In this document: in pieces, positions 55,902 to 63,816 of the stretch
How positions within the stretch are numbered: the stretch's first letter is position 1
How the letters are laid out: each line of letters starts with the position of its first letter
NCBI GenBank assembly: GCA_963830935.1
Contig: CAWHOC010000016.1
Location: 13,852 to 77,851, forward strand
DNA from: an uncultured bacterium
GTDB lineage: Bacteria; Patescibacteriota; Minisyncoccia; UBA6257; 2-01-FULL-56-20
DNA length: 64,000 nucleotides
Direction: 5' to 3'
The notes under the pieces: generated by a model
Database searches by the model: none
What the model was told of the DNA's origin: nothing
What the model saw: only the letters and a program-made list of their open reading frames with translations
Made by a program: the position numbers and the translations under genes

Positions 55902-56020
55902 CTGTTTTAGCGACCCGTTCCAGAATTATCTAGGCAACATTGTCCTTATCCCGGAATGATTAAGAAAAGATTAAAAGAGACTTGGAGTATGGGTAAATTA
56001 GATATATGATTTAGTGACAA

Positions 56021-57514
56021 ATGGGAAAAACAACATCTATAACTGGACAGTTGAATACGAAAATCGACGAAAAAAGGAAGAAGGTTTCTAGGGAAACTTT
56101 ACTTAACGACCCAGCTTTATTAGATGCCCAAGTTGCTATCAAGCTTCTTGAAAAAAAATACGAGAAGAAGCTTGAGAAAAATTATGAACTCAGCAGATCT
56201 CTTGTTAGTTTTCAAGCTAATAAAACTGAGCCAGGATATCGATGGTTTAAATTTAAAGAAGGATATTCTTCGTCTCTCGTAAAATATACACTTAAAAAAC
56301 TTGGCATTAATCCAAAGAAATCGATTGATCCCTTCGCTGGTAGCGGAACGACATTATTTGTCACTGCTGAATTAGGCGCTGAAGGAACAGGTATCGAGCT
56401 TTTACCAATAAGCTCAGAAATTATAGCGGTTAGAAAATATTTATCTAGTAATAAAAAACATAAAGCTTTAAAGATTATTGATGAATGGTTAGAAAAAAAA
56501 CCTTGGGAAAAACATAAGCATAAAATAACTCTTAATCAGTTAAGAATTACCAGTGGGGCTTTTCCGGATTCTAATAAAGACCTTTTGGAGCGTTATATGG
56601 CGCTTCTTAATTCGGTTGGCGATCCTGAAGTAAAACGAGTTTTAAGATTTGCCCTCCTCTGTATTTTGGAAGAAATTAGCTATACCCGAAAAGATGGACA
56701 GTATTTGAGGTGGGATAAAAGATCTGGCAGAAAGCAGGGAGCACAACCTTTTGATAAGGGAGAAATTAAAAACTTTAGTCAGGCCGTGGTTACAAAATTA
56801 GCCACAATTAAAAATGATTTAATGGGAGATACTTTAAGTAATAATCTTTTTCCTATTAGACTTGCAAAAGCCAATACATCAAACGTTAATGTTTTGGATG
56901 GTTCATGTTTAGAGATTCTTCCGAAACTCCAATCTAATTCGCATGATTTTTTAATGACCTCGCCACCTTATTGTAATCGTTACGATTATACGAGGACGTA
57001 TGCTCTTGAATTAGCCCTTTTAGGGATAGACGAAGCAGGGATTCGCGATTTAAGACAAAAAATGCTTTCAGCTACTGTTGAAAATCGAGATAAGCCAGAA
57101 TTAAATCTCCTTTTCCCTAAGACATTTAAAAGCGCGACGAAAGCATTTGATCAACAAATAGCTTTACAGAAGATTCTTTACTACCTAGATGTATTAAGGC
57201 AAAAGAAAGAATTAAATAACCCTGGCATTTTTCGAATGGTAAAAAATTACTTTTTTGAAATGTCTTTAGTAATATTTGAATCTGCTCGTATTCTAAAGAA
57301 AGGATCGTATTTTATTATGGTAAATGATAACGTACGATATGCCGGAATAAATATTCCAGTAGATCTTATATTATCTGATTTTGCAGAAAAAGCAGGCTTC
57401 GGAGTAAAAAAAATATGGGTTTTACCTAGGGGCAAGGGGAATAGCAGCCAACAAATGGGAAGTTATGGACGAGAAGAAATGAGAAAGTGTGTCTATATTT
57501 GGCAAAAGTTATAA
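56021..57514 (+). CDS. DNA amino-methyltransferase (N6-A or N4-C), low GC, intact
   Basis: Motif I DPFAGSGTT and motif IV TSPPY; GC ~33%. Confidence 0.65.
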   Translation: MGKTTSITGQLNTKIDEKRKKVSRETLLNDPALLDAQVAIKLLEKKYEKKLEKNYELSRSLVSFQANKTEPGYRWFKFKEGYSSSLVKYTLKKLGINPKKSIDPFAGSGTTLFVTAELGAEGTGIELLPISSEIIAVRKYLSSNKKHKALKIIDEWLEKKPWEKHKHKITLNQLRITSGAFPDSNKDLLERYMALLNSVGDPEVKRVLRFALLCILEEISYTRKDGQYLRWDKRSGRKQGAQPFDKGEIKNFSQAVVTKLATIKNDLMGDTLSNNLFPIRLAKANTSNVNVLDGSCLEILPKLQSNSHDFLMTSPPYCNRYDYTRTYALELALLGIDEAGIRDLRQKMLSATVENRDKPELNLLFPKTFKSATKAFDQQIALQKILYYLDVLRQKKELNNPGIFRMVKNYFFEMSLVIFESARILKKGSYFIMVNDNVRYAGINIPVDLILSDFAEKAGFGVKKIWVLPRGKGNSSQQMGSYGREEMRKCVYIWQKL

Positions 57515-58390
57515 ACCAACTAACCATTGAGCCAAATCCTCAACCTGTTCTTTGGTCCCTAAATTCGCGGCGAATGCTAAATTACTATTTTTCAGATCAG
57601 CATAAATTTCTTTCGCCATTTCTATTTCTATTGCAGCTCCCACGAAAAATAGAGAGGGTTTATTGAAACCTTTTCGAATACGTGCAAGTGCTCCACTCGC
57701 CGTCTTTCAATGTTCATCAGCTCCAGCGGGATCTATCCCACCTTTAAGCTCCCCGAAAGCAAGATAATTTTTAGGATCAGCAAACGCTTCTTTAGTCGAA
57801 TGTTTCGAAGTATCTAAAAGAATAACATCAATGTTCTTTTTAATAAGTTTAAGCTTATAATCAAAAACCAAATGTCGTTTTGGCCAGCTTATGCTAGTTA
57901 TCTTACCCGACTTTTTTCTAAAAATCTCAGGAGATATTTTCTTTAAAGCTAAGGCCGCTATAAGTGAGTCAGTTAATTTTAAAGCGGCAGAAGCACCTAT
58001 AAAATTTCTCATAGATCCTCCTAGGGTATCTCCCTTAGTTAAAAGATAGCGATGCACTAATTGCTCTCTAGCAGTGATTACACCGCTTTTAAAAATCTTT
58101 CTTAGGACGACTTTAAGTGAATCTTCGATATCTTTTTCCTTTAAGTGACTTGATGCCTTATCCGAAAAACCTGCCGCGGCTAAAACCTCTTTTTGGAAGG
58201 ACTTTAACTTGGACAATTGGTTAATATTATTAACTTTTTCAAGGGCGGTTCTAAATTCAACAGCCCTTACCAAATAAGGTGTTGATTTATCTGTTTTTGT
58301 AAGGGCTTGGAAAAGAAATCCGGCCTTTATGGCTTCAGGCGAAGTCACTAAATCTTGATATCCCTTAATATGCTTAGGTTTCATGGCCAA
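57512..58390 (-). CDS. probable type II restriction endonuclease (partner of the adjacent m5C MTase); one frame break ~57706; its stop abuts the MTase stop (ttaTAA)
   Basis: Position between the two MTases; ELKGGIDPAGADEH segment; low GC; the C-terminal ~65 aa continue in another frame. Confidence 0.35.
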
Positions 58391-58555
58391 GAGGAGTCGA
58401 TATTACTTAATAAATTCAACAACTGTATCAAAATTTAATCATTTTTTAATGAATTGTGCAAATTTTTCAACCAGAGTATATTTAAATAGGATTTAATATA
58501 TGGACACCTTAATTTCGCAAAGAGCAGTCCTACAAATATCTCGCAAATATTATCA

Positions 58556-61861: not shown

Positions 61862-63008
61862 GACTTTGATGGAAAAGATTAAAGTCCTAATTGTCTATTA
61901 CTATATTATTATTGCTGGACAGCTTTTGCAATTATTGAATGGAGCAGAAATAGCAGATTGTAAGATTTTAGCAGAAGCTATTGGAGATTTTGATCGAGCA
62001 AAGGAACTTTTGGCTATAGGAAATTATGACGTTGTTATTTTGGACGTTTATAGAGGGGGGCCCTCAGAAGAAAATACGGATCTTGCAGGAAGAGAAGTTC
62101 TTGAAACAATTAAAACTACCGCGCCATTGGCAGTTATCTTCTATACCGGTCTCACGAGTCATGTTCAAGAATTAGCTTCTGATGTTGTAAGGGTGTTATC
62201 AAAAACAGGGGGCAATATTGAAAATGAGTTAAAACTCCTTTTAGAAACAGGAATTCCTCTAATGAGACAAAAAATTACAGGACACGTAAATGAAATCCTA
62301 AAGGATTATTATTGGGAGTTCATTGATAAAAACTCTAGCTTAATTCAAGATTCTCAAAATAAAGCTCTTTCGGAATATCTTCTCTTGAGGCGATTAGCGG
62401 CTACTCTTACAAGAGATGGAGTCCATAAAATATTTGGCGACGCCATTTCGTCTGACAAAATCCATCCTTTAGAATTTTATATTTTTCCCCCTATAGATGA
62501 GGCAGAGTTCGAAACGGGAGATATTCTTGAGAAGGATGGTGTCGGCTCCTTCCACGTGGTTTTGACCCCATCATGTGATTTTGCAAATCATAAAGCAAGT
62601 TTTATCTTATTGGTAAATGGAACTCTGCTAAAAGAAACTGACGAATATATTTCCTACGCCGCTGATAGAAGTAACGTTGCCGTGAAAGAGACTCTAAGTA
62701 GGGTCATAGGTTCTAGGCGCGGTGACCGATATTTTTTTCTTCCTCGGAGCGAACTTATGGCTATGCCTGACCTAGTTTTAGATTTTCAGAATTTAACAAA
62801 TCACCAACTTGAAGGATTTAGCGGCTATAAAAAAATTGGAAGAATAGATGATCCATTTGTGCAGGATATGCTCGCTACATTTATAAGAAATCAAAATCGT
62901 CCTGGATCTCCGGATCTGGATGTCACATATATTTTGGACTATATAAATAAAGATATAGACCCTCCAACGCAAGAAACAATTCCACAGGCACATGATAGAA
63001 AAGAATAA
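61860..63008 (+). CDS. atypical receiver domain (acidic pair replaced by Y-Y; phospho-acceptor Asp, Thr and Lys retained) fused to an uncharacterised ~250-aa C-terminal domain; intact
   Basis: KVLIVYYYIII...DVVILDV...VIFYTGLTS...VVRVLSK; I recognise no motif in the C-terminal domain. Confidence 0.45.
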   Translation: MTLMEKIKVLIVYYYIIIAGQLLQLLNGAEIADCKILAEAIGDFDRAKELLAIGNYDVVILDVYRGGPSEENTDLAGREVLETIKTTAPLAVIFYTGLTSHVQELASDVVRVLSKTGGNIENELKLLLETGIPLMRQKITGHVNEILKDYYWEFIDKNSSLIQDSQNKALSEYLLLRRLAATLTRDGVHKIFGDAISSDKIHPLEFYIFPPIDEAEFETGDILEKDGVGSFHVVLTPSCDFANHKASFILLVNGTLLKETDEYISYAADRSNVAVKETLSRVIGSRRGDRYFFLPRSELMAMPDLVLDFQNLTNHQLEGFSGYKKIGRIDDPFVQDMLATFIRNQNRPGSPDLDVTYILDYINKDIDPPTQETIPQAHDRKE

Positions 63009-63807
63009 GCAAGCATTAATAGTCGCATACTATCTATCGAAATATAATATAAAAGGATATCGGGATTTGGGCTATAAAAATTTTTCAGAGGCAGCTCGTG
63101 ATATTAGTACTTCCTTAGGTATTAAATTCAGTACATTTCAGAATATGCGTGACGAATTTGATCCATATCATGAAAATAATCGCGTGGGGTGGCATCAGAA
63201 AGGTTTAACAATTAGCCGGCGAAATGTTATGGAATCTTTTCGTTATATTAATGAGCAATCCTTACGAGAGATTGCCCTTGAGATCATTATTGGTAAAAAA
63301 CTTAGGGATTCTACTTGGATAAATAGTTCACTTCTCCTTAATAAAATTAATGATATCGGTGATACGCCTAAAGAAGATTTTCCAAGAGGCGTAACTGGTG
63401 ATAAGGCAGAAAAATATTTTATAGAGTATTTTAATAAATATCAAAAGCCATTTAAAGGAATCTTAACTGATAAACGTAGTGCGGGGTGTGGTTATGATTT
63501 TGAAATTGCATCGAATAATAAGAAATATTTTATTGAAGTCAAGGGTATCTCCTCCGAATGGGGAGGAATTTTGTTCACCAACAAAGAGTGGTATATGGCT
63601 CGTTTAAAAAAGAAAGCATATACCCTTGCAATAATTCTTGATCTAAAAAACGAGGGAGAAATCTATTTTTTTTCTGATCCCGCAAAAATCTTTTCTGCGG
63701 AGAAAAAAACCTCCCTAGTTCCACGCATTGATTGGCATGTTAGCTCAGCCAGTATCAAGACAATAATTTCTTCCGGCGCAGCGGATTTTTTAGGCTATCA
63801 TAGATAG
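62992..63807 (+). CDS. DUF3883 (restriction-endonuclease-like, PD-(D/E)xK) domain protein with an uncharacterised N-terminal ~100-aa domain; overlaps the upstream gene by 17 nt
   Basis: CGYDFEIASNNKKYFIEVKG...GGILFTNKEW matches the DUF3883 D...E.K core; intact; low GC. Confidence 0.5.
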   Translation: MIEKNKQALIVAYYLSKYNIKGYRDLGYKNFSEAARDISTSLGIKFSTFQNMRDEFDPYHENNRVGWHQKGLTISRRNVMESFRYINEQSLREIALEIIIGKKLRDSTWINSSLLLNKINDIGDTPKEDFPRGVTGDKAEKYFIEYFNKYQKPFKGILTDKRSAGCGYDFEIASNNKKYFIEVKGISSEWGGILFTNKEWYMARLKKKAYTLAIILDLKNEGEIYFFSDPAKIFSAEKKTSLVPRIDWHVSSASIKTIISSGAADFLGYHR

Positions 63808-63816
63808 ATGCACCAC

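Follow-up and report, generated by a model that had tools for sequence, protein, structure and literature searches.

Two published studies describe close relatives of the system reported here. Iyer, Abhiman and Aravind (2008; PMC2292703) described GHKL ATPases of the MORC and paraMORC families in restriction-modification (R-M) systems, in a text where the word 'receiver' has no occurrence. Bellieny-Rabelo et al. (2021; PMC8011034) reported a soluble protein made of HATPase_c_3, DHp ('HEF_HK') and HATPase_c domains, whose gene lies beside a 'Response_reg_2' gene with a linkage of 91.6%. That pair is usually found downstream of a C5-cytosine methyltransferase (C5-MTase) gene with HNH_2 and Vsr genes nearby, and the authors related the HEF_HK elements to the paraMORC ATPases of the 2008 study. 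No later experimental work on these elements was found in a literature search. Here, a cassette of this kind is described from a 64,000-nucleotide stretch of contig CAWHOC010000016.1, referred to below as the window, where it belongs to a low-GC island located after fusA. The island (55,956 to ~63,770, ~7.8 kb) is a mosaic of an R-M pair (module A, 55,956 to ~58,460) and a four-gene cassette (module B, ~58,460-63,770, + strand), as delimited by shifts in GC and in GC at third codon positions (GC3), by contig comparison and by homologue contexts. It is likely a horizontally acquired, AT-rich defence island composed of two independently mobile modules and partly decayed, with module B as a phosphorelay-type cassette.

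The gene order of module B is dcm, a gene for a MORC-like GHKL ATPase fused to a histidine kinase, a receiver gene and a gene for a NOV_C/DUF3883 nuclease. The contexts used for comparison were collected via homologues of the 379-aa receiver protein and come from a Bacteroidota-like contig, two unclassified metagenome-assembled genomes (MAGs), Pontibacter fetidus, an Acaryochloris plasmid, an Enterobacter plasmid and contigs resembling those of the Candidate Phyla Radiation (CPR). In these homologues the cassette consists of a C5-MTase, a protein of 686-723 aa carrying an N-terminal PF13589 and a C-terminal PF02518 domain, a receiver of 357-393 aa and a variable nuclease. Adjoining kinase and receiver genes with a C5-MTase upstream are present in the window and in seven of the eight homologue contexts, and a receiver-like gene, with several different C-terminal extensions, lies directly downstream of the kinase homologue in about 60 of 69 further loci. 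The combination of MORC and Dcm genes with a histidine kinase and a receiver had been taken as unusual in the preliminary description of this DNA; it is a conserved cassette, and one already published in 2021 (PMC8011034). The nuclease partner varies between contexts, being NOV_C/DUF3883 in five, HNH_2 in one, an Mrr protein encoded upstream in one, and absent in three. The NOV_C gene follows the receiver gene in loci L006, L089 and L090-93. Regarding abundance, when receiver homologues are clustered at 50% identity, 992 clusters pass E<=1e-30, and the number grows to 1,823 with E<=1e-10. Among the 8,000 candidates scored, 1,887 kinase homologues (E<=0.001) were found, and 74 relatives were confirmed in a scan of viral contigs.

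The first gene of the cassette (58,556-59,794, + strand) encodes a Dcm-type C5-cytosine methyltransferase, with PF00145 split over three frames. Compared with the dcm genes of L090 and L004, its 1.24 kb carries three frameshifts, all +1 (~58,808, ~59,658 and ~59,731), and no in-frame stops. It matches the PADLOC model PDLC02649, a DrmMII-like methyltransferase, with an E value of 1.7e-107.

The second gene (59,800-61,863, + strand) had been reported as two, one for a MORC-like ATPase and another for a histidine kinase. Since the homologues carry PF13589 and PF02518 in one protein, as is the case in all the intact ones, these are a single fused gene of ~690 aa, and the window copy, a pseudogene, is collinear with intact homologues of 686-706 aa from the first to the last residue. 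Once corrected for frame, it is 66% identical to its closest homologue (P0068). The alignment of 50 homologues displays the Bergerat motifs of the N-terminal ATPase (E36/N40, D68xGxG, GEKGIGR and G167-T168), a long helix in which H480 is invariant and precedes an aspartate (D481), and the N (N591, N595), G1 (D627xGxG), F and G2 (GxGxG) boxes of a kinase core. Both motifs and fold place a GHKL domain ahead of an S5-fold domain, which is the arrangement that defines MORC and paraMORC proteins, and this part is followed by the DHp domain with its H-box and by the HATPase_c kinase core. In NCBIfam, residues 18-209 align to the N-terminus of the BbrUII/HgiDII restriction enzymes (NF050001 positions 9-199, E 1.3e-19) and residues 457-689 to AtoS/ZraS kinase cores. 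A Foldseek search with the AlphaFold model (predicted local distance difference test, pLDDT, 80) retrieved MORC2, MORC3, MORC4, SMCHD1 and the N-terminal and middle domains of Hsp90 over ~460 columns, as well as the DHp-CA modules of HK853, ZraS and CpxA over ~240 columns. PADLOC gave no system-level match for the kinase, which matched only the N-terminal GHKL models of MzaB.

The third gene (61,869-63,008, + strand) is intact and encodes a receiver domain joined to a conserved, unannotated C-terminal domain; its 379-aa product is 100% identical to P0001. The profile of this family matches the receivers in PDB with an E value of 1e-9, and 58 of the 71 members match PF00072. The family keeps the DDD triplet after strand 1, the phospho-acceptor Asp59, a threonine after strand 4 and Lys112. 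In the window copy, codons 10-12 read YYY (TAT TAC TAT) at the pocket that is DDD or DDE in every homologue, and this copy has neither a PF00072 match nor the canonical acidic pocket. The family pattern DDDxxVxxQ reads YYYIIIAGQ at 61,896-61,922, a low-complexity run (TATTACTATATTATTATT), and no alternative frame restores the DDD pocket. Point mutation would be an odd source for three adjacent G->T changes with further substitutions beside them, and slippage or a local replacement may be behind this pattern.

The whole receiver protein was modelled with AlphaFold2 at a pLDDT of 91. Its C-terminal 250 residues had no sequence match in Pfam (PF02452 included), NCBIfam, PADLOC or PDB. Tyr204, Pro207, Cys236 and Gly346 are invariant in this region, and Asp237 and Arg344 are found in at least 90% of the members. 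In structure searches, the C-terminal barrel superposed on Escherichia coli MazF with a template modelling (TM) score, normalised to MazF, of 0.69-0.70 (E ~1.5e-4) and on several phage PemK-like proteins with TM scores of 0.52-0.68; besides receivers, MazF and PemK were the only recurring structural neighbours in both structure libraries. The effector role of this domain is a guess. On the IMG/VR viral contigs (L094-L167), the products of receiver-like genes that follow kinase homologues fall into at least four size classes (~210-230, 330-400, 440-480 and 500-610 aa), and several of them have a PxCD...RxG signature at the C-terminus. This shared signature points to a modular family of receiver-effector proteins.

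The last gene of the cassette (62,992-63,807, + strand) is also intact and encodes a NOV_C/DUF3883 protein (PF13020, E 2.5e-16, 60 bits). It reads GYDFEI...FIEVKG, a pattern of the PD-(D/E)xK type, and is a predicted nuclease. It begins 17 nt before the receiver gene ends, and its final ~13 codons already lie in backbone DNA. No frameshifts were found when it was compared with the homologues of L089 and L090.

Compared with the published HEF_HK/Response_reg_2 families (PF19191 and PF19192), module B presents the same succession of HATPase_c_3, a DHp domain with a histidine followed by an acidic residue, and HATPase_c, with the receiver-like gene immediately after, a C5-MTase usually upstream, and HNH_2, Vsr or other nucleases alongside. 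PF19191 gave no match at E<=1 in three homologues, at E<=0.1 in two plasmid homologues or in the 120 best family members, and none of the 71 receiver members matched PF19192. A distant group of downstream proteins on viral contigs reached a sub-threshold PF19192 match (E 0.055), and the distant Response_reg_2-like group is homologous to the window family over 295 columns that include the C-terminal domain (hhalign 97.9%, E 6e-13). This domain may be common to ~1,000 protein clusters and to the published Response_reg_2 proteins. The window family differs in that its receiver is closer to PF00072 and shorter (~370 aa versus ~440-480), in having NOV_C as its usual fourth gene, and in the shared C-terminal domain, which is not described in PMC8011034. 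The window cassette thus belongs to a sister clade of the published families. Surveys that use PF19191 and PF19192 under-count the system, as this sister clade comprises ~990 receiver clusters and more than 1,800 kinase homologues, some of them viral. Moreover, the unannotated but confidently modelled C-terminal domain of the receiver, which resembles PemK/MazF, is a concrete target for study in a widespread defence-like system.

Other described systems share parts of this design. As in the MORC/paraMORC systems of the 2008 study, a GHKL and S5-type module with intact ATP-binding motifs is found among cytosine methylases and Vsr, HNH or restriction-endonuclease-fold nucleases, whereas the window type has a C-terminal histidine-kinase core and a receiver partner and has no SF-II helicase partner. 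The likeliest named family is paraMORC1, which is characterized by a 'distinct C-terminal extension' and found with HNH, a comparison by description only. The BbrUII/HgiDII enzymes (NF050001) and the paraMORC3/VcSduA Shedu proteins (PMC12137116) also possess an N-terminal GHKL ATPase that is thought to gate a nuclease, but in these the nuclease is fused to the ATPase, while module B has separate proteins and a His-Asp relay. Detocs (bioRxiv 10.1101/2023.01.24.525353) is similar in concept, as a cytoplasmic kinase-like sensor passes phosphate to a receiver-effector that acts as an immune switch. It differs in that the window sensor is a MORC-like ATPase coupled to a DNA methylase, with neither a buffering second receiver nor a purine nucleoside phosphorylase (PNP) effector. 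PADLOC found no match to DtcA, DtcB or DtcC for the receiver or the kinase, and its other matches were limited to the Type II restriction endonuclease and MzaB N-terminal GHKL models. Finally, the toxins of the MazF/PemK/CcdB fold resemble the receiver C-terminal barrel in structure, as the superposition on E. coli MazF and phage PemK-like proteins indicates, and differ in the lack of any profile similarity and in that the receiver family has Cys236-Asp237 and Arg344-x-Gly346 instead.

The proteins of module B carry the full set of motifs required for ATP binding by a MORC-like clamp, autophosphorylation on histidine and phospho-acceptance on aspartate, and their genes share an operon with a methylase and with interchangeable nucleases. 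In the proposed mechanism, the Dcm methylase would mark self DNA, and the soluble fusion of a MORC-like GHKL and S5 DNA-clamp ATPase with a kinase would sense unmarked or foreign DNA and autophosphorylate on the H-box histidine. The phosphate would pass from there to Asp59 of the receiver, which would release its C-terminal domain, and this domain would act on nucleic acid either itself or via the translationally coupled NOV_C protein. Cassettes that lack a separate nuclease speak for this domain as an effector in its own right. The modelled PemK/MazF-like fold suggests a toxin-like role, and this is the weakest step in the chain. As a whole, the idea of a methylation-aware immune phosphorelay, in which a MORC-like clamp drives His->Asp transfer to a PemK/MazF-like Cys-Asp effector acting as a toxin or as a licenser of the nuclease, is put forward as a speculation that is unlikely to hold in all its parts. 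If true, two-component signalling would be joined to the self-marking of R-M systems in a novel manner. In this genome such a relay could not run, given the destroyed kinase gene and the mutations in the receiver pocket. Here module B is either dead or on its way there, although the receiver and nuclease reading frames are still open.

Module A is located at the left of the island and consists of a convergent pair of genes identified by Pfam, PADLOC and their relatives. The first gene (56,021-57,514, + strand) is intact and encodes an amino-methyltransferase of 497 aa (PF01555), which matches the PADLOC MTase_II model PDLC03224 over nearly its full length (E 7.8e-154) and has motif I (FAGSGTT) ~200 residues ahead of SPPY. 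Its closest homologue, P0330, is 90% identical in amino acids and is encoded on contig L170 next to an intact restriction endonuclease (REase) of 291 aa of the BsoBI family. The DNA of L170 is 82.5% identical to the window over 2,125 nt from 55,956, with unrelated sequence on the left side and in the genes past the REase. The same pairing of methyltransferase and REase occurs on an Enterococcus faecalis plasmid. Hence, modules A and B travel separately, because L170 has the module A pair without module B and in unrelated surroundings.

The second gene of module A (57,509-58,390, - strand) belongs to the BsoBI family of Type II REases (PF09194) and carries one in-frame TGA (57,707-57,709). The preliminary description was right in listing an REase-like gene at this point and is corrected as regards its state. 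The truncated reading frame matches PF09194 with an E value of 1.5e-51; when tryptophan is placed at the stop, the match extends over the full length of the profile (3-313/313, E 4.3e-77), and two homologues have tryptophan at this position (GADEHWKTA). As in the BsoBI/AvaI systems, the amino-methyltransferase gene is adjacent to the REase gene and convergent with it, and the window protein aligns to the BsoBI structure (PDB 1DC1) through GELKGGIDPAGADEH, identical to BsoBI residues 239-253; the difference is that it stops by TGA after His253. A single TGG->TGA transition probably truncates the REase, and the nonsense codon is probably real because it is a substitution. A decoding of this TGA as tryptophan or glycine under an alternative genetic code was considered and rejected because the backbone genes have no in-frame TGA and other in-frame stops of the island are TAA or TAG. 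The amino-methyltransferase is predicted to protect a short palindromic site that an intact convergent endonuclease would cut when unmodified. With the REase truncated, the methyltransferase would therefore be left as an orphan methylase. CYCGRG sites in the backbone number 62 versus 81 expected, so there is no strong avoidance.

The composition of the island is clearly distinct from that of its surroundings, as had been noted from the drop in GC after fusA, which goes from about 0.55-0.60 to about 0.36. In 1-kb windows, GC ranges from 0.44 to 0.62 over 1-56 kb and from 0.346 to 0.381 over 56-63 kb, so that all the island windows lie below all the backbone ones, and GC is high again in the last ~200 nt. 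GC3 is 0.64-0.82 in the backbone genes (tsaD, sigma factor, rpsL, rpsG and fusA), 0.27-0.29 in all the island genes, and reaches 0.80 over the 64 codons that are visible at the right of the island. These codons are the start of a YgjP-like (DUF45) metallopeptidase gene (63,808-64,000, + strand; PF01863, 23.5 bits over 64 aa), which is 91-95% identical in contig L171 and whose version in contig L186 matches PF01863 at E 2.4e-37. The left end of the island, 55,956, is the exact start of the DNA homology to L170. At the right, the NOV_C homology stops at 63,759-63,765 and the backbone homology to contigs L181 and L171 resumes at ~63,770-63,800. The boundaries given in the preliminary description thus stand roughly and are refined by the contig comparison, and all the genes it listed are present (PF01555, PF09194, PF00145, PF13589 with PF02518, the receiver protein and PF13020). 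Module B is also AT-rich with respect to its flanks in six of the eight other hosts, in agreement with a mobile module.

The insertion site could be examined in three metagenome contigs of close relatives (L171, L181 and L186), recovered by a scan with the DUF45 N-terminus, which share both flanks with the window at 85-95% DNA identity. In all of them a GC-rich hairpin follows fusA. In L186 it is followed by 2.06 kb encoding a SocA/Panacea antitoxin-like protein, one unknown protein and one with a Multiubiquitin domain, after which comes a 5'-truncated YgjP-like gene. In L171 the spacer measures 528 nt, is low in GC and contains a DUF3892-like reading frame. L181 contains the first ~160 nt of the island (the methyltransferase promoter and first 31 codons), ~350 nt of another reading frame and the YgjP-like gene, and the simplest reading is that it is a deletion remnant of the island. 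These different contents at the same site support the horizontal origin of the island. With short and differing cargo (0.5-2 kb) in three close relatives, the site behind fusA is a hotspot for cargo, at which this lineage has at least four alternatives, the island among them. The slot, with different cargo in four close relatives, is a natural series for following the gain, decay and loss of defence genes in tiny genomes.

At positions 1,941-2,417 of L181, the first 31 methyltransferase codons are fused to unrelated sequence without a Pfam match in a reading frame of 159 aa. Its final ~25 codons are also present in L171 and, as DNA, at window positions 63,770-63,807. This fusion may be a recombination scar that marks the ancestral resident gene of the site.

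The expectation that tuf should follow fusA was correct for many Patescibacteria: in distant members, tuf is found 0.2-6.7 kb behind fusA with assorted cargo in between (L007-L086). It did not apply to the three closest relatives, where the YgjP-like gene comes next; none of them has tuf between the two genes, and in L186 there is none in the next 6 kb. The cargo between fusA and tuf in the distant genomes is lineage-specific and often of lower GC, and includes toxin-antitoxin-like pairs, pilins, membrane proteins and pyrimidine-biosynthesis genes. A variable slot downstream of fusA may be phylum-wide.

The state of the genes has to be judged against the quality of the assembly, for which fusA, encoding elongation factor G (EF-G), serves as reference (53,676-55,787, + strand, stop TAA at 55,785-55,787). 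A frameshift-aware alignment with the EF-G of a relative shows this gene split over four frames by three single-base insertions (~54,132, ~54,579 and ~55,694). They sit outside homopolymers and are unique to the window, being absent from L186 (90.8% DNA identity), where fusA is one uninterrupted reading frame of 705 codons, and from L181 (88.5%). This points to a systematic insertion error of the assembly, so artefactual +1 insertions, unevenly spread, are the baseline for the window. The three +1 insertions of dcm are indistinguishable from those of fusA, and dcm may be intact. The receiver and the module A methyltransferase genes have no frameshifts and no in-frame stops. The kinase gene contains 13 frameshifts (6 x +1 and 7 x +2/-1) and three in-frame stops (60,082 TAA, 60,330 TGA and 61,309 TAA) in 2,067 nt. 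Because this density, 16 lesions in 2.07 kb, is ~5x that of fusA and includes types that fusA does not have (opposite-sign shifts and stops), the kinase gene is considered a genuine pseudogene. Homopolymer errors as the source of the uneven frameshifts were rejected, as the homopolymer density of the kinase gene is below that of the intact methyltransferase gene. The uneven distribution of frameshifts had been read as real decay of the middle genes; this is right for the middle of the island, but density alone is weak evidence given the three insertions in fusA. Support for real decay is confined to the kinase gene, the REase gene and the pocket of the receiver.

That all the disruptions are sequencing or assembly errors, and that the island encodes two fully functional systems, is quite improbable. 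The insertions in the essential fusA gene, not shared with two close relatives, would favour it, as would the dcm lesions, of the same +1 type and similar density, and the fact that recG, uppP and a glycosyltransferase gene are split too. Against it stand the seven opposite-sign events and three stops of the kinase gene, whose homopolymer density is lower than that of the intact methyltransferase gene, and the lesions of the REase and of the receiver pocket (DDD->YYY) are substitutions; in L181, moreover, nearly the whole island has been lost. A chimeric misassembly or a binning contaminant deserves hardly any credence as the origin of the low-GC block. The GC switch is certainly very sharp, the stop codon of the last island reading frame abuts the ATG of the next gene, and assembly quality is low. 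Nevertheless, the junction between the fusA hairpin and the first ~160 nt of the island is found at the same place in the independent contig L181, and in each of L171, L181 and L186 a variable low-GC spacer connects fusA with the YgjP-like gene. In addition, the promoters of both module A genes carry an upstream motif that is found elsewhere in the genome and the lineage, and there is a record of the receiver protein from a contig of 148 kb. A different function is also conceivable, in which the kinase and receiver would be a regulatory two-component system that controls the neighbouring R-M genes, with the receiver's C-terminal domain binding DNA or protein. This explanation is doubtful. Response regulators are mostly transcription factors, the authors of PMC8011034 propose a signalling role, the C-terminal domain lacks the catalytic residues of MazF, and in the L002/L003 context a controller-type gene with a helix-turn-helix (HTH) lies upstream of dcm. 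However, no HTH or other DNA-binding domain was found in the 71 receiver members with Pfam or by fold search, interchangeable nucleases are translationally coupled to the pair, the ATPase at the N-terminus is similar to the GHKL domain found in BbrUII/HgiDII restriction enzymes, and the minimal cassettes contain no other candidate restriction component.

The reading of the locus as an acquired defence island with a phosphorelay-type cassette has its own difficulties, and the following points weigh against it. There is no integrase or recombinase among the reading frames of the window, no word of at least 7 nt is common to both island junctions, and the att-like direct repeats suggested as a check were searched at the island flanks and not found. 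No tRNA target lies at the island, the nearest tRNA being 4.4 kb off, and only 193 nt of backbone are visible at its right. As for the cassette, L002 and L088 have no separate nuclease and L087 has no annotated dcm, though the gene table of this plasmid is incomplete. The receiver's C-terminal domain aligned to a small MazF alignment with an hhalign probability of 1.3%, the catalytic arginine and threonine of MazF (R29/T52 equivalents) are not conserved in the receiver family, and no experimental test of the module B mechanism was found in the searched literature. Finally, in an error-prone assembly, part of the lesions in the kinase gene could be artefactual. The island is genuine and well delimited, a composite of known kinds of system, and of low novelty in itself. 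For this genome it has little weight, being one more half-dead defence island in a noisy CPR assembly.

The host is assigned to the Patescibacteria (CPR) on sequence grounds. The EF-G fragment is 71-77% identical to the EF-G of Patescibacteria MAGs, with none closer among 185,579 species genomes, and the window has a type IV pilin and a small, dense gene layout, typical of this group.

The hairpin found behind fusA spans 131 nt (55,782-55,912, + strand), starts 3 nt before the fusA stop and has 35-bp arms that are 97% complementary (free energy, dG, -97.8 kcal/mol; z = -11.7). Its core of ~65 nt is the 'family-B' structured repeat that the preliminary description placed at the fusA stop; it does exist there, and its copies are located at 37,831-37,888, 48,842-48,906 (- strand) and 55,819-55,894. 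The three are 75-88% identical, and only the fusA copy lies within a 35-bp perfect inverted repeat. The hairpin is conserved downstream of fusA in L186, L181 and L171, and it is, together with the repeat, a GC-rich backbone element outside the island. The repeat may be a terminator or an element like the repetitive extragenic palindromic (REP) sequences. Rfam gave no match to the hairpin (its scan of the window matched only tRNAs), and an exact-match metagenome scan with the hairpin arm gave none either.

At the left edge of the island, a pattern search located an AT-rich 20-nt motif, ATGATTAAGAAAAGATTAAA (55,956-55,975, + strand), with an inverted copy at 58,434-58,453, upstream of the REase gene. 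The pattern ATTAA[AG]AAANNATTAAA occurs three times in the window versus 0.005 expected, and also in L170 and in contigs of the DUF45 lineage, usually with TTTTGAC (-35 element) next to it. The two copies were considered as terminal inverted repeats or as a cassette recombination site, and this was dropped because a -35 hexamer comes after the motif, which is also repeated upstream of genes of other kinds in the genome and the lineage. The motif is a promoter-upstream element, and its presence in L170 and in genes of the lineage suggests a circulation of module A between organisms that are related. A general promoter and terminator scan showed no enrichment over shuffles.

Some minor features of the window were also observed. 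Frameshifts split the backbone genes recG (46,553-48,890), uppP (39,888-40,791) and a glycosyltransferase gene (45,019-46,552). The tRNA predicted by ARAGORN at 15,626-15,699 has an undetermined two-base anticodon and an Rfam tRNA score of only 37 bits, and may be another indel artefact, in the anticodon loop. Between a DUF1653 gene and uppP, ~1 kb (38,900-39,900) has a GC of 0.41-0.47 and a strong positive GC skew, and no convincing reading frame or annotation was found in it. In the interval between rpsG and fusA of the str operon, a reading frame of 140 aa with an LPD3 domain (53,020-53,442; PF18798, E 6e-7; GC3 0.45) lies inside a low-GC patch (53,000-53,750). This is a second, smaller insertion in the lineage of the window, because the corresponding gap of 357 nt in L186 lacks the LPD3 reading frame. 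Finally, at 1,886-2,500 the motif ATGATTAAAAAAAGATTAAAAAACTTTTGACA appears right after the stop of a gene and is followed by a ~600-nt segment (GC 0.37-0.42) that encodes, on the minus strand, a protein with an NYN domain (PIN-like RNase), and this segment looks like another small cargo insertion.

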